NCBI GenBank assembly: GCA_963768055.1
Contig: CAVYGN010000001.1
Location: forward strand, 224,001 to 288,000
Origin: an uncultured Spirochaetota bacterium
GTDB taxonomy: Bacteria > Spirochaetota > Brevinematia > Brevinematales > JAOACQ01
Direction: 5' to 3'
DNA: 64,000 bases
Positions 1 through 11,356 of this stretch are shown here, piece after piece. Each line of letters begins with the position of its first letter. The first letter of the stretch is position 1. Under the pieces are notes generated by a model, which worked only from the letters and a program-made list of their open reading frames with translations, was not told the DNA's origin and did no database searches. The translations under genes and the position numbers were made by a program.

Positions 1-948
1 AATTTATTTATAACGAACGTATGCAACCTTGACTGCAATTACTGTTTTGCCAAAGGGATGCTGGGTGAGAAGGGAGTGAATGAGTTCTCGCTGGATGAAA
101 TTAAAACCGCGGCTTCTTTCGTCAGATCCTCAGGCAAGGGCGAGAATAAAAAAAATAATATTATTTCCATTCTCGGCGGAGAACCGACCCTTCATTCGAA
201 ATTCAGGGATATTATCGATTATCTGACCGGTAATGGATTTATTGTCAAGCTTTTTACCAACGGCACTTTTCCTGCGGCGATTTCTGATTACCTGAAAAGT
301 CTTAAGCCCGGCCTTTTATATATTATACTTAATATGAACCGCCGGGAAAATTATTCTGATGTGAAGTGGAACAACCTTGAGCGTAACCTGCGTACATTGA
401 ATTCTATGATTACCCTGGGGATGACTATTTATGAGAAGAAATTCGATTACAGGACCATCCTTCAGTATATCGAAACATATGATTTGAGGAAAGAGATAAG
501 GCTTGGTATTTCCCTGCCCATTGTCAACGGAATAAATGAATTCGTCAGGTTTGATGATGTAAGGGAAATCGGCGGACGGATTGTCGAATTCAGCGGGGAA
601 GCCTTTAAAAAGGGCATAATCGTCGGCTTTGACTGCGGATATGTCATGTGCATGTTCACAAGGAAGGAGCTCGGCATATTGCAGTCGAATAATGCGAATC
701 TGAATTTTCTGTGCGACGGGGCGATCGATATCGGGAAGAACGGGCGTGTATGGAGGTGTTTCCCGTTATACAGCATCTATAATACCAATATCGGGAAATT
801 TGATTCGGTAAGATCGCTCAAAGAATATTACAACTCGGCTCTGCCTGCGAAAGTAAAGGGGATATCCGGGAATTGCTCAGACTGCGATTATTTTAAAAGG
901 CGTATTTGCTCCGGAGGATGCTATGGATTTGAATTTATACAGCAATGA
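1..948 (+). CDS. Radical SAM/SPASM-domain enzyme (5'-truncated by window edge)
   Basis: Frame 1 is open from base 1 and reads NLFITNVCNLDCNYCFAKGM, so the CxxxCxxC motif lies upstream of the ORF-track start at 58. GGEP motif; C-terminal SPASM-like cysteines (C..C, CxxCxxxxxxxCxGGC). Confidence 0.9.
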   Translation, partial: NLFITNVCNLDCNYCFAKGMLGEKGVNEFSLDEIKTAASFVRSSGKGENKKNNIISILGGEPTLHSKFRDIIDYLTGNGFIVKLFTNGTFPAAISDYLKSLKPGLLYIILNMNRRENYSDVKWNNLERNLRTLNSMITLGMTIYEKKFDYRTILQYIETYDLRKEIRLGISLPIVNGINEFVRFDDVREIGGRIVEFSGEAFKKGIIVGFDCGYVMCMFTRKELGILQSNNANLNFLCDGAIDIGKNGRVWRCFPLYSIYNTNIGKFDSVRSLKEYYNSALPAKVKGISGNCSDCDYFKRRICSGGCYGFEFIQQ

Positions 949-1705
949 TATGACAGTCCGGCTGTCTGCAGGAAAACGGCGTAAAAGTTTCCCCGACAGA
1001 CTGCCCGAGCTCAAAGGAATCCTTGAAATAAACGGCATTAAAAATGTCATTATTACATGCGGCCGGGACATTCAATATAATATTGATATGATGTCGCTGG
1101 TCATGGACAAATTCAACGTGTGGCTTGAATGCGATCCCGGGGATTATCTCCTTTATAGCAAGGCCGTCAAAGAGATCTCGCCACGCAGGGCGACGGTCAT
1201 GCCGGGATTCAGGCTTGATGGCGAAGGGATCTCCGGCTTCAGGCTGTTCATGAAGAACACTGACTTTGACATGGAATTGTCGGTGTTCATAAAGACCGAT
1301 AAAAAGAATAATGAGGACGGTAAAACGGTTTTAAGGGAAATGATGTTAATTGCGGGAGAGAGGCCTGTAACTTTCTATTGGGATTGCGGGCTGTTATTCT
1401 GCGATTTCAATGATGAGGAGCTGCTGGGATATTTTATTGAAAAGGGGAGTATGATGAGGTTTTACTGCGCGCCTGTGATGAATATAGACACAGGGTTTAA
1501 AATGAGTTTCTGCCCTTCCCTTAAATTGCGCGGCATGGATATTTTGAAGAACAGTCTTTTTATGGAGAAATCCGGCAAAGCACTGAAAAAGCTGGATTCG
1601 TACTGGAACTTCGGGATATTCGGAAAATGTTCTTCATGTCCTAATTTTCTTAAAGTCTGCTCCGGCGGCTGTAAAGCGGCAGTTAAAGAGAGTTTTCAAA
1701 ACTAA
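923..1705 (+). CDS. SPASM-domain protein; degenerate radical SAM paralog lacking CxxxCxxC
   Basis: C-terminal half parallels the flanking rSAMs (WDCGLLFC ~ FDCGYVMC ~ FECGVPHC; CSSCPNFLKVCSGGC), but there is no N-terminal SAM-cluster motif or GGEP. Confidence 0.7.
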   Translation: MDLNLYSNDMTVRLSAGKRRKSFPDRLPELKGILEINGIKNVIITCGRDIQYNIDMMSLVMDKFNVWLECDPGDYLLYSKAVKEISPRRATVMPGFRLDGEGISGFRLFMKNTDFDMELSVFIKTDKKNNEDGKTVLREMMLIAGERPVTFYWDCGLLFCDFNDEELLGYFIEKGSMMRFYCAPVMNIDTGFKMSFCPSLKLRGMDILKNSLFMEKSGKALKKLDSYWNFGIFGKCSSCPNFLKVCSGGCKAAVKESFQN

Positions 1706-1724
1706 TTATCACAAGGCGGTAAAT

Positions 1725-2684
1725 ATGCCAAATCTTATGATTACCAATTATTGCAATCTTGCATGCCCTTATTGTTTCGGCATTGAGCAGATGAGCCCGA
1801 ACTGCTCCCCGCAATTTATGACGCGCGATACATACTTGGATCTTCTCGGATGGATGAAAACATCGGAGCTCGATTATTTTCATCTTATGGGCGGCGAGCC
1901 TACGCTCCACGAGGATTTTCTCTGGATGCTGGAGAAGGCTTCGGAAAAGGGTTTCAAAGTGGATGTGTTTTCAAACGGAATAACAGATTTTTCTGATGAT
2001 GAGATCAAAATGATAAAGGAAAAATCCCGATTCTGGATCGTAAATGTAAACGATCCGAAAAACTACAGCGCGGATAAGGTCGCAAGGCTTGAGAAATTGC
2101 TTAAGGGCCTGAACGACAGTGCATCCATCACCTTTAATATAACGGATGAAGATTATGATCCTTCCTATGTAATAGATTATATAAACAATTTCAAGCTGAG
2201 GAGGGATATAAAGCTGGGTATCGCCCTTCCGACACTAAACCAGGAAAATAAGTTTGCATCAACCGAGGATTTTGCCGGATTGTCCAGAACAGTTGTCGAA
2301 TTGTCCTACAGGATGAAAAAAGAAAAAATAATGGGCGAGTTCGAATGCGGCGTCCCGCACTGTTTTTTCAATAATAGGCAGAGGACAATTATAAAAAAGA
2401 ATAACTTTGCCAGTTTTTCCCAGTGCTGTTCCATGCTCGATATCCTTCCCGATGGAAATGCCATATATTGTCTTCCCCTTGCCAAACTACTGAAGGAACA
2501 TTATTCCAGATTCAAAACCTACCTTGAATTATGGACCTATTTCCAGGATTATTACAGGCCTTATCGAAGCGCAGGGTATAAAAAGGAATGCCTGACCTGC
2601 AAGTGGAAGTGGAGCTGCAATGGAAGCTGCCTTTCACGGATAATGCCTTATTATATCGGGGCAGGTGATGAAGCAAAGCTTTAA
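1725..2684 (+). CDS. Radical SAM/SPASM-domain enzyme
   Basis: CNLACPYC motif, MGGEPTLH, C-terminal CLTCKWKWSCNGSC. Confidence 0.92.
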   Translation: MPNLMITNYCNLACPYCFGIEQMSPNCSPQFMTRDTYLDLLGWMKTSELDYFHLMGGEPTLHEDFLWMLEKASEKGFKVDVFSNGITDFSDDEIKMIKEKSRFWIVNVNDPKNYSADKVARLEKLLKGLNDSASITFNITDEDYDPSYVIDYINNFKLRRDIKLGIALPTLNQENKFASTEDFAGLSRTVVELSYRMKKEKIMGEFECGVPHCFFNNRQRTIIKKNNFASFSQCCSMLDILPDGNAIYCLPLAKLLKEHYSRFKTYLELWTYFQDYYRPYRSAGYKKECLTCKWKWSCNGSCLSRIMPYYIGAGDEAKL

Positions 2685-4419
2685 TGCGGTCTTATTTATC
2701 AAAAGCATAATGAAGTTCCTCTCCCCGTACATCAGAAGATACGGGAATCTAATAATAATCGGCGCGGCTATTTCATGCACCATGGCGCTTGTTAACTACT
2801 TCAACTTAAGGATCATTAAAAACGTATTTGACGAGAAATTATACAACAGCGGGTTATTAACAATCGGCAGGTCTTTATCAATGGTGCTGGGAGCTTTTCT
2901 TATGTACTACGGATTAAACTATTTCTTAACAAACATGAATAACAACATAATGCTTTCGATTAACCGAGATATAATCAGGGATTTCTATATGAGAATCTGC
3001 AGTTTTTCAATGATCTTGATGAACGAATTTTCCCCGGGCCGGCTTATGACGTTATTATTGAATGATATAGTCCAGATTACTCCTTTCGTCAATCTTATAT
3101 TCATCGAGCTGGTTAAAAGTTCATTGATCTCTGCTGTAATACTTGTATATCTTTTCAGCATATCCTGGGCTTCGGCTATAATACCCCTTGTTATGATTAT
3201 GGTTTTCCTTTTAATAAACAGGTATTTCAATTCGCGGATGCGAAAGATGAAGCCGGCGATCCAGAAAACCCTTGAAATGTTCAATAATAAGCTTCTTGAC
3301 CATTTCCAGGGAATTAAGATCCTCAAGGTATACGACCTCGACGATTATGAAAAGGGAAGGTTTTCAGAATTAAACCAGACGGTTACAAGCCAGAACCGCG
3401 GTATTCTTAAGATGGAGAATTTAAAGAAGAACACCGCCGAAATCCTTGCCGTTCTTTTCATATGCGCCGCCGCCTTCACCGGATTTATGCTTGTCAGGGA
3501 GAATATTGTCACGGCGGGGATTGTTGCGGCTGTTTTATTCGCCTGTTTTATCCTGAATAATGAACTCAAGACCATGTTTGAAATATTTTCACGGGTTTCC
3601 CTTATGTCCGTTCATCTGGAAAGGATTGAAAAGGCTTTTAAAATATCCGGAGAGAGCCCCGGCTATTCAGGCAAAGAGGGGTTAAAGACCATACTTAATG
3701 ATCCGGTAACGTCCATCTGCTTTGAGAATGTGGATTTTAAGTACTACTCTAACTATATCCTCAAATCCGTGAACTGTGTTTTTAATACCGGGGCGGTAAT
3801 AGGGATAACAGGCGAATCCGGCTTTGGCAAATCTACAATGCTGAATCTGATGCTCGGACTTATAGCCCCGGGCGAGGGGGCAATAAAGATAAACGGCATG
3901 CCCCTTGAAAGTCTCGAGGTTAAAAATTATTTGAAACACATATCTTATCTTTCGCAGAGGCCGTTTTTATTCCAGGGCTCTTTTAAGGATAATATCGCTT
4001 TCGGCGAGCGGGAAGTCGACATTGAAAAGATGGTCAGGGCTGCAAAATCCGCGAACATTCACAAGTTTATCACAGCTACCCCCATGGGTTATGATACTGT
4101 GATTTCCGAGGGAGGACTTTCAATATCCGAAGGGGAGAAAAAAAGGGTTGAAGTCGCCAGGGCCATATATAAGGATTCTTCAGTTATTGTATTTGACGAA
4201 CCTACGGAAAGCCTTGATCTTAATAATAAGTTTGCCATCGTCGACATGATCAAATCCCTCAGGGAAAAGATCATCGTCGTGGTCAGCCATGATCTTTATA
4301 CCCTTGAAAGGTGCGACAGCTGGCTAATGATAACCCAGGATAAGCGGGTCAAGGAGATCAATGCTTTCGAAAAGCTTTATGAGGAAATAATGGGCGGGAA
4401 TAAACCCTATGAGTCATAA
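2668..4419 (+). CDS. ABC exporter, fused TMD-NBD (peptide/MsbA-like), no C39 peptidase domain
   Basis: About 6 TM helices, Walker A GESGFGKST, atypical signature ISEGEKKR, Walker B VIVFDEPT, H-loop VVSH. GTG at 2665 is an alternative start. Confidence 0.9.
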   Translation: MKQSFNAVLFIKSIMKFLSPYIRRYGNLIIIGAAISCTMALVNYFNLRIIKNVFDEKLYNSGLLTIGRSLSMVLGAFLMYYGLNYFLTNMNNNIMLSINRDIIRDFYMRICSFSMILMNEFSPGRLMTLLLNDIVQITPFVNLIFIELVKSSLISAVILVYLFSISWASAIIPLVMIMVFLLINRYFNSRMRKMKPAIQKTLEMFNNKLLDHFQGIKILKVYDLDDYEKGRFSELNQTVTSQNRGILKMENLKKNTAEILAVLFICAAAFTGFMLVRENIVTAGIVAAVLFACFILNNELKTMFEIFSRVSLMSVHLERIEKAFKISGESPGYSGKEGLKTILNDPVTSICFENVDFKYYSNYILKSVNCVFNTGAVIGITGESGFGKSTMLNLMLGLIAPGEGAIKINGMPLESLEVKNYLKHISYLSQRPFLFQGSFKDNIAFGEREVDIEKMVRAAKSANIHKFITATPMGYDTVISEGGLSISEGEKKRVEVARAIYKDSSVIVFDEPTESLDLNNKFAIVDMIKSLREKIIVVVSHDLYTLERCDSWLMITQDKRVKEINAFEKLYEEIMGGNKPYES

Positions 4420-4903
4420 TAACGACGCCCGGCCCGGTTTTTTTAGTTCCTATTTGCTGGGACTGAGGATCGCGGGCATAAAAAAGTTTTTCAAGGGAAA
4501 TATAACTGCCATCGTACGCTCGCTTAGATTGATAGGCAGAGGGCATTTTATCAATAAAAGCGATTACATTGAGTTAAAAAAACTTCTATCGAGGGTCTAC
4601 ATATTTTCGCCCTGGATGTGGAAACAGAAGTGCCTCTACATCTCGCTTATGGAATATTATTTCTGCCCGGGCGCAGTCCTGAACATCGGGTTTGATATTT
4701 CGGAAATGAAAAATGAAGGACATTGCTGGATTACTATGGACGGGCTTATCCCTGATAAAGACCAGGAGAATCTGTGGTTTTCCAATCATTACAGGATATA
4801 TTTTTCAAGAAAAGGCGATGTGATATACTGGCTGCCGGCAAAGTACAGGGAAACTGAAAAGGTTTCAAAATTATTCGGTTTTATGAAGGGGGTAAGGCAA
4901 TGA
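4409..4903 (+). CDS. Lasso-peptide B2-type (transglutaminase-like) leader peptidase
   Basis: 164 aa; KCLYISL and GHCWITMDG match the CLxxSL / HAW..D Cys-His-Asp pattern of the B2 family. Confidence 0.75.
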   Translation: MSHNNDARPGFFSSYLLGLRIAGIKKFFKGNITAIVRSLRLIGRGHFINKSDYIELKKLLSRVYIFSPWMWKQKCLYISLMEYYFCPGAVLNIGFDISEMKNEGHCWITMDGLIPDKDQENLWFSNHYRIYFSRKGDVIYWLPAKYRETEKVSKLFGFMKGVRQ

Positions 4904-6345
4904 AGAGGGTCGCTCTTATATCCCTCAATGTGAGGGGCTATTATTCGACAGCCCTGGACCTTATATCCGGCTATGCCCTGGGGGACAGCGAGATAAGAGA
5001 AAACTACTCCTTTCGTATTTATAATGTTTCCATGAAAATTGTTAAAAAGGTCCGGCTTTATAAGCCGGGGTTCGCCGATTTTTTTATCGGCTTATTTAAA
5101 GACTGCCTGCTGTTTAATTTTAAACAAGCCGATATACGGATTAAACAAGCGCTCGAATATAACGGATTCTATGTCAGGGTTTCTGAAGCCATGTCGAGGC
5201 TGGCTGCTTCAATAAAGATCCTCGCTGGTTTTCCTGATATTGTAGGGTTTTCATGCAGCGTATGGAATATCCGGGAATCTCTAAGAACAGCGGCTTTGAT
5301 AAAAAAGTTCAGACCCGGGGTGATTCTGGTCTTCGGCGGGCAGGAGGTGACCAATTCGGGGCCTGCTTTTGCCGCTGCTTATCCCTTTATCGATTATGTC
5401 GTCGATGGGGAAGGCGAACAGACCTTCAAAGAAATTCTTCTTTCGCTGCTTAAACAAAAGCAGGCTCAAACAGCTCCCATACCCGGATGCGCGGTGAATG
5501 GCGCCCCGTTTATTAAAAGAGAGCCGATAGCCGATCTTGGCGGTGTGCCGACCCCTTACCTGTCGCTGATAAAGAACAAGAAAATGATGAAGGTTGTCCT
5601 GGGATCGAAACTCGGATGCATGATAGAGTCTTCAAGAGGCTGCCCGTTCAAATGCACCTTCTGCTTCGAATCCGACCGTTTTAATTCTGTGCGCTACAGG
5701 CCTTTAAAAAATATCACTGATGAATTAATGCTATTATCATCTCTTGGCGCTTATGGTTTTCATATTCTCGACCCGACCCTCTGCGGACTGAATAAGGGCA
5801 GGACCAGGGAGATAGCTGACATAATCCGCAGCATAGAGGGCCATGAAAATTTTAAAATTTCAGTAGAGGTATACCTCGATTACCTGATCGAGGGGATGAT
5901 CGGCGATCTCGATGTGTTTTATTCTTTTGATGCCGGGCTCCAGACTGTAAATCCCCATGTTTTAAAAAAGATAAGGCGGGTATGGAACCAGGAGCGGTTT
6001 ACACGAGGGTTTTCACTGCTCAAGCAGTTAAAAGGAAAGATTATTGCGGTGTACCTGATTTTCGGCCTGCCTGGGGAATCCTATTTCAGCTTCATAAAAA
6101 GCGTCATTTACGTTTTAAGCCTTGAGCCCGATTTATTTTATGTTAACAAGTTAAGCCTCCTCTCCGGTACGTCCCTGAGGAGGGACGCTCCGGCCTTAAA
6201 ACTGGATTACTCGGAGTCTCCTCCTTATCATATCAAATCCACCCCGGATTTTTCCGAAGAGGAGATAGGGCTTTGCGATATATTCACCAAGAGCATGATG
6301 TGGGAATTCAACACATACAATTATAGGAGAAGTATTAATGCTTGA
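4900..6345 (+). CDS. Cobalamin-binding radical SAM enzyme (putative methyltransferase)
   Basis: B12-binding domain (DIVGFSCSVWN, VFGGQEVT, GEGEQTF) followed by SRGCPFKCTFC and IFGLPGES. Confidence 0.88.
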   Translation: MKRVALISLNVRGYYSTALDLISGYALGDSEIRENYSFRIYNVSMKIVKKVRLYKPGFADFFIGLFKDCLLFNFKQADIRIKQALEYNGFYVRVSEAMSRLAASIKILAGFPDIVGFSCSVWNIRESLRTAALIKKFRPGVILVFGGQEVTNSGPAFAAAYPFIDYVVDGEGEQTFKEILLSLLKQKQAQTAPIPGCAVNGAPFIKREPIADLGGVPTPYLSLIKNKKMMKVVLGSKLGCMIESSRGCPFKCTFCFESDRFNSVRYRPLKNITDELMLLSSLGAYGFHILDPTLCGLNKGRTREIADIIRSIEGHENFKISVEVYLDYLIEGMIGDLDVFYSFDAGLQTVNPHVLKKIRRVWNQERFTRGFSLLKQLKGKIIAVYLIFGLPGESYFSFIKSVIYVLSLEPDLFYVNKLSLLSGTSLRRDAPALKLDYSESPPYHIKSTPDFSEEEIGLCDIFTKSMMWEFNTYNYRRSINA

Positions 6346-7246
6346 TTATCATAATACTTGCGTCTGCGAGGGAGCGCCATGGTACGGCAATATACCTGTT
6401 ATTAATGAGGAGGGGTGTTCAGCCCTTCCGAAAGAATCGGTGATAAAGGATATAAGGGGCGGAAGAGAAAAAGGAAATATAGCACTTACAGGGGGCGAAC
6501 CGCTCATGCATCCGGATATCATGGATTTTATTTTTGAATCCGCCTGCCTGGGTTACCGGAGAATAAAGCTGATGACTGGCGGCAGTAGATTAGCCGATAC
6601 AGGTTTTCTGAAATCGCTGATCTACGCCGGCGTTTACTTGTTTGAAATCCCGGCATGCAGCCCGGATGACCTGACAAAAAAAGATCCTGTCAGATCGGTT
6701 AGAAAATCCTCGGAAGGGCTCAGGAACATCAGGAAAATAGCAGAACTTGACACATATTTTTACAACATATATGTCGCCCTCGTTTTGCCGGTTTGTTCCC
6801 TGAACTATGGAATTCTTGAAGAAATACTTGGTGCAGTGATAGAAGACGTCAAAGTCGACAGGGTTATATTCTGCTGGGGAGAGCCGGGTTTCGATATCCG
6901 GAAAGCGGGTTTATCCCTGGGCGGGGCGATCGGGAAATGCGTTAAAAACAAGATATGGGCATTTACGCGGGGGATCCCCCTTTGCGCCATTCCCGGAAAT
7001 CATATATACCATATGGAAGAGCTGTATGTTTCCGGCGCTCCGGATACGGGTTTCGACCTTTCAGGGCCATGCAGGGAATGCTGGGCTAGAAGTCTGTGCC
7101 GGAGATTACCCGGCCCGCTTGCTTCCTTCAAATATGCGTGGAATCCGAGGGCTGTCGAAGCTGAAAAATATACTCCTTATGTAAAGGACATCCTGGAAAA
7201 GGGATACGTTTTTGATGCTGAAAATGAAAAACTTTACAGCTCATAA
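6338..7246 (+). CDS. Radical-SAM-fold protein with degenerate cluster motif (HxsC-like appearance)
   Basis: LTGGEPLMHPD retained; N-terminal YHNTCVCE instead of CxxxCxxC; C-terminal IPLC...CRECWARSLC. Confidence 0.65.
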   Translation: MLDYHNTCVCEGAPWYGNIPVINEEGCSALPKESVIKDIRGGREKGNIALTGGEPLMHPDIMDFIFESACLGYRRIKLMTGGSRLADTGFLKSLIYAGVYLFEIPACSPDDLTKKDPVRSVRKSSEGLRNIRKIAELDTYFYNIYVALVLPVCSLNYGILEEILGAVIEDVKVDRVIFCWGEPGFDIRKAGLSLGGAIGKCVKNKIWAFTRGIPLCAIPGNHIYHMEELYVSGAPDTGFDLSGPCRECWARSLCRRLPGPLASFKYAWNPRAVEAEKYTPYVKDILEKGYVFDAENEKLYSS

Positions 7247-8384
7247 AGGCTTGCCGGAAAACCGCGCTATCGTCCTGACAGCCCTTGACTGTCATGATAA
7301 TCCTTATCTCGATGATAAAATAAGAGAAGCGGTAAAAGGGATCAAAGACTGGAATTATGTGGCCTTCCATCTTGTCCACCATGGCACGGCCGGCATGTTT
7401 GCAAGGCATGGGGCACGGCTGGGCCTGGAAAATAATATAGACGAAAATTTCCTCCGGGAAATCAGGCTTCGCGACAAGCTTTTCAGGTTCAGAAACGCCA
7501 GGTATTATAAAGAAATGTCCAGGATATCCTCCCTTTTCGAAAAAAACAGGGTATCAATGACTTTTGTAAAGGGCGCACAATTAGTAGCCGCAGGGCTCAT
7601 AGAGCCGGAAAACAGGTTCATGAACGATATCGACTGCATTGTGCCCATTGAAGAAGCGGGCAAGGCCAGGGAACTGCTCCTTGGCGGCGGATATGCCGAG
7701 CAGGGAGAAAATGATTTCGACTGCCGGTATGACCTTAAAGGGGAGATGAGGTTTATTAACATAGAAGACAGGGAAATTTCTGTAGATATAAACATCCTTC
7801 TCAATAAAAACCGGGAACTCCTGCATTGCTACCCTTTAAAGACAGAGGATATGCTCTCCCGTTTAACATGGAAGGCCGGAAAAGGCCTTTCATACAATGA
7901 AATTGAAAACGAATTCCATTTTATATATTGCCTCTACCACCATGCGGCGCTGAATTATTTCTGGAGGCTGAATTGGCTTAACGACCTTTATATCATGTTC
8001 AAAAAAGCTAATATCGAAAGATTATTTTCATATGCATCCAGGTACAAGCTTGGAAGGGTCCTGGACCTTTTCCTCGATATTCTTTCGGCGCATTATGATA
8101 TAAATACTCCCCGGAAATCAAAGGGGATCAATATAGGGCTCAGGAGGCTTTATCTCGATCCTTCATGTTCATTTGCGGACCTTGAAACGATCGACAGGAA
8201 CGAATCGGTCCGCATATTCATGATAGACAGAGTACTCGACCGCATAATATTTTTAATCATGAAGGTCTTTTCTTCTCCCGAAACCCTGAGGATTTATTAT
8301 AATTTGAACCCTTCTTCCGGCATATTTTATGTTTACGGAGTACATGTTAAGAATTTATTTAAAAGAATAATAACTAAAAGGTGA
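7212..8384 (+). CDS. Nucleotidyltransferase family protein (NTP_transf_5 type, as in lasso-peptide clusters)
   Basis: KGAQL...RFMNDIDCIV catalytic motif; HHAA...RLNWLNDL C-terminal motif. Confidence 0.8.
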   Translation: MMLKMKNFTAHKGLPENRAIVLTALDCHDNPYLDDKIREAVKGIKDWNYVAFHLVHHGTAGMFARHGARLGLENNIDENFLREIRLRDKLFRFRNARYYKEMSRISSLFEKNRVSMTFVKGAQLVAAGLIEPENRFMNDIDCIVPIEEAGKARELLLGGGYAEQGENDFDCRYDLKGEMRFINIEDREISVDINILLNKNRELLHCYPLKTEDMLSRLTWKAGKGLSYNEIENEFHFIYCLYHHAALNYFWRLNWLNDLYIMFKKANIERLFSYASRYKLGRVLDLFLDILSAHYDINTPRKSKGINIGLRRLYLDPSCSFADLETIDRNESVRIFMIDRVLDRIIFLIMKVFSSPETLRIYYNLNPSSGIFYVYGVHVKNLFKRIITKR

Positions 8385-9415
8385 ATTTGATTATGGAAGA
8401 CCGCGCTGGCAGGTTTTTTTCTGGAAGGCTGAAATGCACCCTCGCCCTGAATATTCATGGGACTCTCCTCCATTTATTATGCGACGACCGCAAGCTTCTC
8501 CAGCTTATAAAAAGGCATCTGAAGACCTACTGGGTAGGGCTTGAAAAAGGAAAAAAACCGGACATGGCCTGTTCCATTATTACCCTTCCCCGTAATGACT
8601 TCGATACAGTCCTTGGAAATTATAAAAGAATGAAAAAAATCAAAAACGACGAGGACCTTGATATCAGGTACGGTAAGGCCGGGCCGGAATATGTTTTTGG
8701 AGTAAATGGGGAATGCATCATCCTGTTCAATGGATCAGATGACGACTGCTGCTGTATATTGCTTAAAACAGACGATGGCGGAATACTTGAACCTATGATA
8801 TTTATGGATATCCTTCTGATAGAATGGCTTAAAAACAGAGGGTTTTATTTTATTCATGCCTCGGGCGTCTGCTCCGGAGGCAGGGCTTTTCTTTTTATCG
8901 GGCCGTCGGGAAGCGGCAAATCTACGGCGTCCCTTATAGGCGCTTACAGCGGGCTGGATTTTCTCGGCGACGACCTGATCATTTTAAAAAAATCAGAAAG
9001 CGGTTTTTACGCTTATTCCTATAATGTTAACGTGAAAGTCAACAGGGACATTATGGAGAAAATGGATTATTTTTCCCGGCCTATTTTCCGCGGGAAAAAA
9101 TATGATACGCTTCAGTTCAGCCTTAAAAAACATTTCAGGGTGGATATTTGCAAAAAAGCGCCCGTAGAAAAAATTTATTTTATAAAAAAGAATAACCCTT
9201 TATGCGTCCTGAGCACGGTGGAGGCATACCCTTTGCTGTTAAAGTCAGTCTGCTTTCCGGGGCGGGACAGGTTTAAGCTGGAGCATTTTCAATTATTTCA
9301 GGATTTTTTAAGGTCTGTCAAGTCCTTTACTGTCGGGCATGAAGATATTAATAATAATTTTGCCGCGCTGGTAACCCCTGATATATCCTCTATGCGGCTT
9401 CGCGGAAAGCTTTAA
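8381..9415 (+). CDS. HPr-kinase-like (PadeK/ThcoK-type) peptide kinase
   Basis: IHASGV, Walker A GPSGSGKST and LGDD motif; cluster context. Confidence 0.78.
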   Translation: MNLIMEDRAGRFFSGRLKCTLALNIHGTLLHLLCDDRKLLQLIKRHLKTYWVGLEKGKKPDMACSIITLPRNDFDTVLGNYKRMKKIKNDEDLDIRYGKAGPEYVFGVNGECIILFNGSDDDCCCILLKTDDGGILEPMIFMDILLIEWLKNRGFYFIHASGVCSGGRAFLFIGPSGSGKSTASLIGAYSGLDFLGDDLIILKKSESGFYAYSYNVNVKVNRDIMEKMDYFSRPIFRGKKYDTLQFSLKKHFRVDICKKAPVEKIYFIKKNNPLCVLSTVEAYPLLLKSVCFPGRDRFKLEHFQLFQDFLRSVKSFTVGHEDINNNFAALVTPDISSMRLRGKL

Positions 9416-10086
9416 ATCTTTTTTGAATGCAGAATATCCTGATCTTCAAACATCATATCAATTTCTATATTATAAGATAAGATTATATTTTCAGTATTTT
9501 CAACAGATTCGGGAATTTTATCAAATATCTTATTGAATGCATCGACCGCTTCGGGGGAAAACTGGTCACCTGAGTGGTTATTTATCTCTTTATAAGCATA
9601 TTCATAAGAGAGCTTCTTTCGATAAGTCCTGTTCGAAGTAATTGCATCAAAACTATCAGCGACGGCAATAATACGTGATTGAAAAGGTATGTCTTCACCG
9701 GAAAGATTTGAGGGATAGCCCAGCCCGTCAAATCTTTCATGATGGTATAAAACAATTTCCGCTATTTCATTGAATATTGGAAGATGTTTTAGGATGGTGT
9801 TACCTATCGCCGAGTGTTTTTGTATAATGAATAATTCATTTTTATCAAGAGCACCGGGTTTGTTCAAAATAAAATCAGGGATACCTATCTTTCCTATATC
9901 ATGCATATGGGCGGCATAATGAATGATTTCAATTTGATTATCGGGCAAATTCATTTCTTCCGCAATCAGCAACGATACGGCTGCAACCCTTTCAGAATGT
10001 GAATAAGTATATGGATCGCGGAAATTCAGAATATTATTGACAATATCTATTAATTCATCTACAGAAAGATTGTGATCTTTTATCAT
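9412..10086 (-). CDS. Stand-alone HD-GYP phosphodiesterase
   Basis: HSERVA, HDIGKIG, HHERFDGLGYP, VADSFDA. Start moved to ATG 10086 (MIKDHNL), which has a purine-rich RBS. Confidence 0.9.
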   Translation of the reverse strand: MIKDHNLSVDELIDIVNNILNFRDPYTYSHSERVAAVSLLIAEEMNLPDNQIEIIHYAAHMHDIGKIGIPDFILNKPGALDKNELFIIQKHSAIGNTILKHLPIFNEIAEIVLYHHERFDGLGYPSNLSGEDIPFQSRIIAVADSFDAITSNRTYRKKLSYEYAYKEINNHSGDQFSPEAVDAFNKIFDKIPESVENTENIILSYNIEIDMMFEDQDILHSKKI

Positions 10087-10250
10087 TAAATATCTTCCCC
10101 TTTGATTTACTACAATATACCGGGACAGTAAACTTTGAAAACGCCGGTGCATGATTATAACATGGAGTTTAATGTTTTGCGGTTTTATTATACTTCATAA
10201 TTATTTTGTCTTATATTCGGTCGAAATATCGGCCAATATGAATTTACCTC

Positions 10251-10279
10251 TTGACTCGATATTAAAAATAAGATACAAT
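10251..10279 (+). promoter_or_regulatory. Sigma70-like promoter TTGACT-N17-TACAAT
   Basis: Seen directly; it lies inside the ORF-track N-terminal extension and supports a start at 10313. Confidence 0.55.
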
Positions 10280-10312
10280 CAGTCATTAAAGAATATTAAT
10301 AGCGGTATCAAA

Positions 10313-10645
10313 ATGGAACAGATGTTTTACGAAGGAAATTACAGTGTTGCTGTTAAAAATGGGACTGTAGAAATCATCGGGAAAGTCGATTCCATAGATT
10401 ACTCGAAGTTAATATCATATCTGAGTACGAATATCGATCAGTCAGGTTTTGAAAATATCAGTATCGATTTCAGAAAAGCAATTTTCATCAATTCCCTTGG
10501 TATTAAAGTTTTCGCGCGTTTCATTTATACCGCTAAGAGCAGAATTGTTTTAATAATCGATTCCTCCATTGAATGGCAGAATATCGCAATCGCACCGCTA
10601 GTTAATATCAGACCGGATGGGCAGGCTATCTTAAGGGCTTATTAA
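10313..10645 (+). CDS. STAS-domain protein (anti-sigma antagonist-like, slr1659-like)
   Basis: IDFRKAIFINSLGI with phospho-acceptor-position Ser, plus WQ motif; paralog of 11580-11903. Confidence 0.7.
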   Translation: MEQMFYEGNYSVAVKNGTVEIIGKVDSIDYSKLISYLSTNIDQSGFENISIDFRKAIFINSLGIKVFARFIYTAKSRIVLIIDSSIEWQNIAIAPLVNIRPDGQAILRAY

Positions 10646-10663
10646 ATAAGGCTGCTGTTTTTG

Positions 10664-11356
10664 TTATTTATATATCTTCCTGATAGAAGCGACAATTATC
10701 CCCAGGATGTATTTTTTATCATCTTTCCCAAAGTTTTTCATATTAATTATATCATCATTTTCAAGCACGGTATTTTGAGATTCCGATAATGAATGAAGAA
10801 ACTTTTCAATCATATTCTGGTTGACCTGTATGGAATAAAAGGAATCTCCGGTACTGTTGAATAGCTGGCAAATTTCAATTTTGTTTCCACTGCGCATGGC
10901 ATAATATCTTTTATCTACAACCCGGCTGAAACCCCGGCGAATGATATGTGTGATATTTTCCGCCTCTTTAAATAGAAAATAGATATTGTCGATTTCTTCC
11001 TGGGTAAGGTTTGATATTTTGTCATCAAAGATATCATTATCGATGATATCCAGCGAAACCTTTTCATATTTGTAAGTGTTGTTCCAATCGTCAAAAGCAA
11101 AAAGCAACTCATCTTTTGAAAAATCAGAGAAGATCCTGAGTGAAATCAAAGGGCTCCTGGCAGGCAGGAAATATTCGACTGGTTGTTTAAAAACTATGGA
11201 AAGTTTTTCAATATCTTCATATTGGGGCATTCTCTCATTTTGCTCCCATTTTGAAACAAGATTGGACGATACCTTCAATTGATCGGCTAATTCTATTTGC
11301 GTCCAGTTTTCTTTTTTTCTGAACATTCTTATTTTATCGCCGATAGTCATAAACAT
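10664..11356 (-). CDS. XRE-family HTH transcriptional regulator
   Basis: IGDKIRMFRKKENWTQIELADQLKVSSNLVSKWEQNERMP N-terminal HTH; unknown C-terminal domain. Confidence 0.85.
   Translation of the reverse strand: MFMTIGDKIRMFRKKENWTQIELADQLKVSSNLVSKWEQNERMPQYEDIEKLSIVFKQPVEYFLPARSPLISLRIFSDFSKDELLFAFDDWNNTYKYEKVSLDIIDNDIFDDKISNLTQEEIDNIYFLFKEAENITHIIRRGFSRVVDKRYYAMRSGNKIEICQLFNSTGDSFYSIQVNQNMIEKFLHSLSESQNTVLENDDIINMKNFGKDDKKYILGIIVASIRKIYK

Follow-up and report, generated by a model that had tools for sequence, protein, structure and literature searches.

Linear polyphosphorylated peptides (LPP), encoded by lppAKBSDN in Paenibacillus alginolyticus, are described as products of a cyclase-less cassette comprising a recognition element for ribosomally synthesised and post-translationally modified peptides (RiPP recognition element, RRE), a kinase, a nucleotidyltransferase (NTP transferase) and an exporter, in which LppK polyphosphorylates Ser3, just past the leader cut (Popov et al., Nat Commun 2026, PMC13381572). 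The same report gives the leader consensus as YxxPxVLxHQxIxFETxxS, with the acceptor Ser after the cut, and states that YxxP leaders go together with a Tyr-binding Asp (D70 of LppB), WxxP leaders with a Gln (Q79 of PbaB1). For the phosphorylated lasso peptide pseudomycoidin (psmCAKB1B2ND), PsmK is reported as the phosphorylating enzyme and PsmN as needed for the hexose on the phosphate, the mutation of D134/D136 having inactivated PsmN (PMC6993621). The window analysed here, a stretch of 64,000 nucleotides from an uncultured Spirochaetota bacterium (contig CAVYGN010000001.1, G000:C1:224001-288000), opens with nine genes; they make up the 3' three-quarters of an operon of 13 genes that begins 2.85 kb upstream of the window. 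This operon probably makes a cross-linked, methylated, phosphorylated and exported peptide from a Tyr-rich precursor, with no lasso cyclase.

The source genome spans 3.69 Mb in two contigs and is 94.75% complete. In positions 1-9415 of the window, nine open reading frames (ORFs) lie on the + strand, with junctions that overlap by 4 to 35 nt or leave a 19-nt gap; all nine are where an initial annotation, made from the letters of the window, had placed a row of co-oriented, mostly overlapping genes. Pfam and NCBIfam searches together with motif counts, which provided the domain assignments, bore out its two intact and two motif-degenerate radical S-adenosylmethionine (rSAM) proteins, its B12-binding rSAM enzyme (B12-rSAM), its exporter and its NTP_transf_5 protein. 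It had also predicted a precursor and a PqqD/RRE protein upstream of base 1, and a scan of the contig in that direction revealed both, as well as two more intact rSAM/SPASM enzymes (rS1 and rS2). The rSAM complement of the operon comes to seven, of which five are intact and two motif-degenerate. In operon order, with negative positions lying upstream of the window, the genes are as follows:

-2848 to -2582, + strand: PqqD/B1 protein, 88 aa (PF05402, E 1.5e-9)
-2554 to -2405, + strand: precursor, 49 aa (ORF translation)
-2374 to -965, + strand: rS1, rSAM/SPASM enzyme, 469 aa (CxxxCxxC intact)
-975 to 2, + strand: rS2, rSAM/SPASM enzyme, 325 aa (PF13186 SPASM, E 5e-7; CxxxCxxC intact)
1 to 948, + strand: rS3, intact rSAM/SPASM enzyme, 317 aa, its ATG lying 5 nt before the window at G000:C1:223995 (Radical_SAM, E 1.6e-11)
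923 to 1705, + strand: rS4p, rSAM-like protein, 260 aa (SPASM match at E 0.0035, below cut-off)
1725 to 2684, + strand: rS5, intact rSAM/SPASM enzyme, 319 aa (Radical_SAM, E 4.7e-11; CxxxCxxC)
2665 to 4419, + strand: MsbA-like ATP-binding cassette (ABC) exporter, 584 aa (ABC_membrane and ABC_tran, without a peptidase domain)
4409 to 4903, + strand: B2-like protein, a putative transglutaminase-core Cys protease, 164 aa (lasso_biosyn_B2, E 1.1e-4, sub-threshold)
4900 to 6345, + strand: B12-rSAM, 481 aa (B12-binding, E 5.9e-14; Radical_SAM, E 5.8e-12)
6338 to 7246, + strand: rS7, rSAM-like protein, 302 aa (Radical_SAM, E 7e-8)
7212 to 8384, + strand: NTP_transf_5 nucleotidyltransferase-fold protein, 390 aa (NTP_transf_5, E 1.6e-27)
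8381 to 9415, + strand: HPr-kinase/PEPCK-fold P-loop kinase, 344 aa (HprK_rel_B, E 6.6e-10, far below cut-off)

The precursor (49 codons, MQKTEEKALKTLSYVKPKTKKHKPVDIVKGSGSLYYYSLYYTYYYYYYY) is preceded by a G-rich ribosome-binding site (AAAGGGGG), carries a YxxP leader and has 12 Tyr among its final 18 residues. Six TAT and six TAC codons encode these 12 core Tyr, so the Tyr tract is not a simple DNA repeat, and its run of seven Tyr is the longest in any reading frame of the genome. A genome-wide search found no second peptide with this leader. Upstream of the operon, at -2979 to -2951, lies a promoter-like TTGACA-17-TAAAAT with a TG extension, which matches at 11 of 12 positions and is a consensus match only. 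Related peptides were found in 23 of the metagenome loci described below, giving 19 distinct precursors, and 18 sequences were aligned. The family leader reads Y-x-x-P-x-T-[KV]-[KR]-H-x5-V-[QKR]-G-S, with Y14, P17, T19 and V28 invariant in the alignment and H22, G30 and S31 nearly so; YxxP occurs in all 24 precursors, including that of the window, which had themselves been picked by a pattern containing Y..P. Cores are built of L-Y-Y-[TSV]-[TS]-L-Y-Y-(K) units, with 2 to 8 LY units each. Over the 497 residues of the 19 distinct cores, Tyr accounts for 41.4%, Leu for 16.9%, Thr for 14.1%, Ser for 9.9%, and Asp and Glu for 0.4% each; ten of these cores end in YYYH and seven in YYYY. In a collection of 5.8 billion protein clusters, from which 8000 candidates were scored, the precursor profile matched at least 200 clusters at E<=1e-3. 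Of the 120 matches listed, 113 show the leader motif in its strict form, with 40% Tyr in their cores (1188/2968). All matches named by their source are called 'hypothetical protein', and the metagenome-assembled genomes (MAGs) they come from are labelled Dysgonamonadaceae, Tannerella, Bacteroidaceae, Paludibacteraceae, Prevotellaceae, Verrucomicrobiae and Elusimicrobiota, mostly Bacteroidales. None of the 18 aligned precursors was matched by an NCBIfam model.

A lasso-type protease/kinase/nucleotidyltransferase cassette had been proposed for the window from the start, and the YxxP leader and the PqqD protein agree with this. Searched against the PDB, the PqqD-family profile matched TbiB1 best (5V1U, E 1.3e-13), followed by 9X90_B (1.2e-8), annotated as 'lasso peptide biosynthesis PqqD family chaperone', TfuB1 (6JX3, 1.6e-6) and 9X8Z_B (3e-4), with nothing significant beyond lasso B1 structures. 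An Asp that is invariant in the family (D71 in the window organism) aligns with an Asp of TbiB1, TfuB1 and 9X8Z_B and with a Gln in 9X90_B. By inference, we assume that 9X8Z_B and 9X90_B are LppB and PbaB1. On the first of these assumptions, we read the invariant Asp as the Tyr-binding Asp, which would fit the YxxP leaders. The B2-like protein, which at the head of the related clusters is 90 to 145 aa long, has six residues that are invariant in 16 family members (C75, Y83, N92, G104, H105 and W107), and its 30 nearest Atlas clusters all carry PF13471 (scores 0.90-0.91). A 2023 review assigns the transglutaminase-like C96 peptidases to lasso peptides (PMC10885120). The sequence link of this protein to lasso B2 is consistent but weak. 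As for the tagging enzymes, the kinase-family profile matches PEPCK (7.7e-7) and HPrK/P (2.7e-6), and the P-loop residues G174, G177, G179 and K180 are invariant, as is G196-D197-D198. A DxD motif is invariant in the NTP_transf_5 family (D139-x-D141 in the window protein) and corresponds in kind to D134/D136 of PsmN. The best model for the exporter is MsbA_lipidA (E 1.7e-69, under its cut-off).

The closest described cassette is that of LPP. As presented in PMC13381572, it shares with the operon a stand-alone RRE, a kinase like HprK, an NTP transferase, an MsbA-like exporter and the lack of a cyclase, and its leader has Y, P and H at the same positions (Y, Y+3 and Y+8). The near-invariant Ser stands at Y+17 here vs Y+18 in LPP, and the rest of the leader consensus differs. 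LPP leaders are described as being cleaved by an SpI (SipW-like) signal peptidase, whereas the operon has a B2-like Cys protease instead and no signal-peptidase (SpI, SipW-like) domain in any of its genes. LPP is also without rSAM enzymes as far as that article goes: 'radical' occurs 0 times in its text, and Radical_SAM is merely one of 834 domain columns in its supplement. Its cores are reported as variable and not Tyr-rich, whereas those found here are about 40% Tyr, and LPP is given there as restricted to Bacillota, whereas the Tyr-rich family is, by source names, mostly from Bacteroidales MAGs. With paeninodin and pseudomycoidin, the operon has in common B1, a B2-like protein, an HprK-type kinase, an NTP_transf_5 protein of the PsmN type, an ABC exporter and a [Y/W]xxP leader (PMC6993621). 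These pathways, however, are described with an Asn-synthetase-like cyclase and an acceptor Asp or Glu, whereas the operon has no cyclase and the cores are almost without Asp and Glu. The pseudomycoidin-type kinase is reported to act on a C-terminal Ser, whereas the cores found here end in Tyr or His, and against four to seven rSAM-type genes here, the phosphorylated lasso clusters described in that source have none. The initial annotation had matched its gene set to no characterised pathway; no characterised match was found here either, but a cyclase-less relative of the cassette has been published in LPP.

Among the rSAM-type proteins, CxxxCxxC is present in rS1, rS2, rS3, rS5 and the B12-rSAM and missing from rS4p and rS7, and rS1, rS3 and rS5 have a complete set of SPASM Cys. 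The paralogues rS3 and rS5 (30% identical, E 1e-46) have CxxxCxxC at residues 10-17 and 8 to 9 C-terminal Cys. rS4p, a paralogue of the C-terminal half of rS3, is without the N-terminal ~60 residues and CxxxCxxC and retains 8 SPASM-type Cys; no separate rS4p gene was seen in the related loci, where its tblastn matches fall within rS3-type genes. rS7 is related to rS2, with C-x-C in place of CxxxCxxC and with the GGEP motif retained. The B12-rSAM, with CxxxCxxC at 248-255, is a predicted C-methyltransferase. The predicted model of rS1 (predicted local distance difference test, pLDDT, 89.7; predicted template modelling score, pTM, 0.87) consists of a helical N-terminal domain, a partial TIM barrel with CxxxCxxC and a SPASM tail with 7-8 Cys. 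Its best structural match is SuiB (PDB 5V1Q; Foldseek E 6.6e-11, template modelling score about 0.5), which is also the best match of the rS1 profile (E 8e-19, identity about 15%); the next neighbours are CteB, anSME, ChlB, SkfB, PqqE and TigE.

SuiB, the maturase that cross-links Lys and Trp in streptide, shares with rS1 the rSAM motif, the partial barrel and the SPASM tail. The SuiB-type N-terminus is a winged-helix RRE with a beta-sheet, whereas that of rS1 is all-helical and the RRE is a separate lasso-type B1 protein. Unlike SPASM maturases such as SuiB, the pathway found here contains four distinct rSAM families. Triceptides, three-residue cyclophanes made by rSAM enzymes on aromatic-x-x motifs, offer another parallel, Tyr being a known cyclophane donor: they too have short core repeats with aromatic residues and rSAM/SPASM enzymes, and the cores described here are full of Tyr-x-x units. 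The operon rSAM enzymes matched none of the curated triceptide models in NCBIfam, and we know of no triceptide cluster with the B1/B2/kinase/NTP-transferase set. In GeoRSP, genome mining has linked an HprK-related kinase to a PqqD protein and an rSAM/SPASM enzyme; the operon is not a member of this HprK-related kinase B/GeoRSP group, with 38.6 bits vs 200 for the kinase (TIGR04355) and 23.9 vs 400 for rS5 (TIGR04303). An rSAM/SPASM enzyme acting iteratively on a motif repeated many times is described for the poly-cyclopropylglycine system TigA/TigB/TigE (PMC9062424; TigE 8VPO), which differs, as reported there, in its TVGG motif, its Val chemistry and the lack of a lasso-type cassette. Literature searches for Tyr-rich rSAM RiPPs, for HprK with rSAM and for PF14907 found nothing pertinent, most subscription journals lying outside their reach.

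The conservation of the cluster was assessed from rS1 outwards. In the 5.8 billion clusters, rS1 has one close homologue (51% identity), on a 16.7-kb contig that also holds the closest match of the kinase (54%), two further kinase matches reaching 34-35%; scans of metagenome and genome contigs gave no confirmed relative. More distantly, an exhaustive phmmer search found 655 representatives at E<=1e-3, 260 at E<=1e-10 and 36 at E<=1e-30, mostly of 440-500 aa and with the common motifs GGEPT, YFATN, FRYN, KPxPxC and a C-terminal CxxCxLYxRxxCQGxCLxxK. The rS1 SPASM tail was back-translated to a DNA pattern, and a scan of metagenome contigs with this pattern gave 54 loci of 1.2 to 18 kb, whose ORFs were classified by tblastn, phmmer, jackhmmer and a small B2 hidden Markov model. 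Many of these contigs are short, and most gene absences are uninformative. A homologue of any of the operon rSAM enzymes is present in 53/54 loci, an rS1-type ORF together with the kinase in 31, the ABC exporter in 26, the B2-like gene in 19 and NTP_transf_5 in 16. PqqD and a precursor with the leader motif are each found in 23 loci and both together in 22, the exceptions to this pairing being L085 and L114 (contigs of 2.3 and 5.5 kb).

Nine of the 54 loci (L097, L100, L103, L109, L111, L122, L131, L132 and L135) hold a full ten-gene set in a single order: B2, rS3, rS5, PqqD, precursor, kinase (one or two copies), rS1, rS2, ABC and NTP_transf_5. In the four long related loci annotated with Pfam, the genes flanking the cluster beyond B2 and NTP_transf_5 have no relation to it, coding for cytochrome bd, a glycosyltransferase, a lipid A acyltransferase and an FGE-sulfatase. 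Since the same gene set recurs in synteny on metagenome contigs, the nine-gene arrangement of the window is more than chance; a precursor and an RRE are present in the homologous loci as they are here, and the neighbourhoods give no indication of glycan or cofactor synthesis. Two kinase genes stand in tandem in 11 of the 32 loci with a kinase (L091, L093, L097, L103, L109, L111, L115, L118, L122, L131 and L132), and the window operon has a single copy. A B12-rSAM occurs in 5/54 loci and together with the kinase in 0/54, which makes it specific to the window operon within this cluster type. The window operon belongs to this family, with its gene order rearranged and with rS4p, the B12-rSAM and rS7 as three additions.

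From these parts, a pathway can be proposed. The PqqD protein likely binds the leader via YxxP, and the four family-conserved enzymes rS1, rS2, rS3 and rS5 would act iteratively on the L-Y-Y-[TSV]-[TS] repeats, for which, by analogy with SuiB-type maturases, Tyr-based C-C or C-O side-chain cross-links would be the likeliest products. In this genome only, the B12-rSAM would add C-methyl groups, and rS4p and rS7, without a SAM cluster, may be non-catalytic partners. The kinase would phosphorylate the nearly invariant junction Ser (V-x-G-S), as LppK does Ser3 of LPP, and the NTP_transf_5 protein may extend the Ser phosphate in the manner of PsmN. Cleavage near the V-x-G-S junction is assigned to the putative B2-like protease; by the lasso convention the leader Tyr is counted as -17, a spacing that would place the cut after Gly and make Ser core residue 1. 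The ABC transporter would export the product.

Several observations weigh against this pathway. The residues and bond type of the putative cross-links are predicted from fold and family. With regard to the recruitment of the rSAM enzymes to the peptide, residues 1-145 of rS1 form eight helices and no strands in a high-confidence model, and hhalign against the PqqD family finds no PqqD-like N-terminal RRE in this enzyme. In the operon, every rSAM enzyme scores below the curated cut-offs of NCBIfam, and two of the seven rSAM-type proteins are without the SAM-cluster motif; such proteins are known elsewhere, as NCBIfam has a curated 'pseudo-SAM/SPASM' family (TIGR04347), taken here by its name only. 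The matches behind the B2 and HPr-like kinase calls of the initial annotation both fall below curated cut-offs, the B2-like protein with 22.5 bits against 33 for NF033537 and the kinase, at 38.6 against 200, far below those of HprK_rel_A and HprK_rel_B. Across the 16 B2-like members, NF033537 matches three at E<=0.01, all sub-threshold, and PF13471 six at E<=1 (best 1.1e-5). Aligned by hhalign with true lasso B2, the family shows the Cys and H-A-W motifs in register at E 0.013 and a probability of 3.3%. Its profile has no match among PDB sequences, the pLDDT of its predicted model is a middling 68.7, and Foldseek against the PDB found nothing at E<=0.001; a wide fold search (VIA-align) was dominated by N-terminal helices (best Z 6.4) and did not reach the catalytic core. 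rS1 was not found in 60 related genomes, only its own genome being positive among the 61 searched, and the only close homologue of the operon is the one 16.7-kb contig, from the Joint Genome Institute (JGI), at 51-54% identity. Lastly, a Shine-Dalgarno-like site precedes the precursor in only 3/24 loci, including that of the window, a scarcity that we take to reflect the hosts and not the precursor gene.

The likeness to LPP raises the question of whether the product is instead a linear phosphopeptide of that kind, with the rSAM enzymes carrying out epimerisation (YydG/PoyD type), hydroxylation, methylation or cyclopropanation and not cross-linking. LPP is described with the same accessory genes, namely RRE, HprK-like kinase, NTP transferase and MsbA-like exporter, and likewise without a cyclase (PMC13381572), the leader spacing of Y, P and H and the conserved Ser near the junction are as in LPP, YydG (E 2e-8) and TigE are among the neighbours of rS1, and Leu and Thr are conserved as much as Tyr in the repeats. 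However, the nearest profile and fold neighbours, SuiB and CteB, cross-link or form thioethers, rS1, rS3 and rS5 have full SPASM Cys sets, and four co-conserved rSAM families over aromatic-rich repeats better fit multiple cross-links; we consider a linear product unlikely. B1, the B2-like protein, the YxxP leader, the kinase, NTP_transf_5 and the exporter also make up the accessory set of paeninodin and pseudomycoidin (PMC6993621), as would be expected of a true lasso cluster with its cyclase elsewhere or of an unrecognised type. The initial annotation had allowed for a cyclase upstream, but no Asn-synthetase-like lasso cyclase is among the 13 operon products, and a search of the whole genome (94.75% complete) with PF00733, positive in 11/14 known genomes used as a control, had its best match on the other contig, at a sub-threshold 20.1 bits (E 7.3e-4). 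Neither a cyclase nor a signal peptidase is among the 42 Pfam-annotated ORFs of four long related loci. Moreover, the usual Thr at leader position -2 is missing, the junction being V-[QKR]-G-S, and an Asp or Glu macrolactam acceptor is generally wanting from cores with 0.4% of each. With no cyclase in the operon, the genome or the four related loci, we conclude that the product is not a lasso peptide, and a hidden cyclase is hardly conceivable.

The combination of PqqD, rSAM/SPASM enzymes and a Tyr substrate follows the logic of PQQ and mycofactocin, and the PqqE and MftC models are among the weak matches, which would suit a peptide-derived redox cofactor and not a secreted peptide. This is very improbable, as the PqqD protein is nearest to lasso B1 and not to the PqqD of PQQ operons, an exporter, a leader protease, a kinase and an NTP transferase are conserved alongside, the cluster borders hold no partner dehydrogenases, and a core of variable length, with 2 to 8 LY units, is ill-suited to a single cofactor. 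There is also little to suggest that the operon is decaying or silent in this organism, with the motif-less rSAM-like genes as remnants and no product made: two of the seven rSAM-type proteins have lost the SAM-cluster motif, the operon was not found in 60 relatives and its gene order is rearranged with respect to the canonical order of the family, yet 13/13 frames are open and tightly coupled, the five other rSAMs and the P-loop, DxD and Cys/His motifs are intact, and the operon matches the genome in GC content. The motif-less proteins themselves retain 8 SPASM Cys or GGEP, and a pseudo-SAM/SPASM family is curated (TIGR04347, by name). We judge decay to be improbable and retain the cross-linked, phosphorylated peptide as the product.

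The pathway is built of known module types, and we file its precursor family and enzyme team as undescribed. We tentatively suggest that it may represent a new RiPP class, in which a cyclase-free lasso leader/phospho-tagging module is joined to a fixed team of four rSAM/SPASM enzymes to give a ladder-like polycyclic peptide with an N-terminal phospho-serine; such a class would be widespread in Bacteroidales and other uncultured bacteria, with the window member as an extreme (12 Tyr in 18 residues and a B12-dependent methylase). Should the prediction prove right, these peptides would form an abundant, uncharted family of ribosomal natural products, represented by at least 200 precursor clusters that are all unnamed, and its four co-conserved rSAM enzymes promise new peptide cross-linking chemistry. 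The lasso leader-recognition/protease/kinase module would then be a portable cassette reused beyond lasso peptides, and the LPP finding of 2026 would extend to rSAM pathways and to phyla outside Bacillota. Cores with 40% Tyr found no counterpart among characterised RiPPs. For genome mining, the conserved leader motif can serve directly as a query, and the ten-gene version is compact enough to suit heterologous expression.

Other loci with related enzymes were also encountered. A second cluster type within the 54 loci (L101, L106, L112, L119 and L129) has a short (about 327 aa) rS1-like rSAM, one or two B12-binding rSAM enzymes and rSAM paralogues, with no kinase, PqqD or Tyr-rich precursor detected. 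A scan from a 7-sequence alignment, which used the generic CxxxCxxC pattern, confirmed 343/600 stretches, and of the best 80 of the 343, which were examined, only L003 is a contextual relative. This locus of an Acidobacteriota MAG (1678-6316) holds an ABC exporter, NTP_transf_5 and an rS1-type rSAM at the contig end, then an amidase gene; no precursor was seen in the available stretch, and the locus probably represents another branch of this superfamily without a cyclase. L004-L010, L006 and L082 were rejected as relatives, the metabolic contexts of their rS3/rS5-like enzymes (about 27% identity) being unrelated. In L082 (4457-14324, a Faecousia MAG), one operon encodes two rSAM enzymes together with an APH-type phosphotransferase, a protein resembling B12-rSAM and several products that no Pfam model matched; it may be another uncharacterised peptide-modification cluster. 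In the same phylum as the window organism, G143 has, one after another, an HprK-like kinase, PqqD and a genuine lasso B2 (L138, 297-1932; NF033537 at 50.9 bits) and is the sole genome with a B2 match among the 301 sampled.

A horizontal-transfer signal was looked for and rejected, the GC content of the cluster (42.7% vs 41.5% for the genome) being nothing unusual, and an Rfam search of the window gave no match. On the 5' side, the neighbours of the operon are a divergent Ku and LigD pair for non-homologous end joining on the - strand (-6445 to -3066; L001 5555-8934), the LigD of which comprises ligase, primase-polymerase and phosphoesterase. The 3' border is a convergent HD-GYP-type gene on the - strand (9412-10152), a phosphodiesterase gene (HD_5) whose end overlaps that of the kinase gene by 4 nt. 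Further downstream are a regulator gene of the slr1659-superfamily/STAS-like type (10151-10645, + strand) and an XRE-type helix-turn-helix gene (10664-11356, - strand). From 9412 to 11356, the GC content is 31-34%, low compared with 41.5% for the genome.

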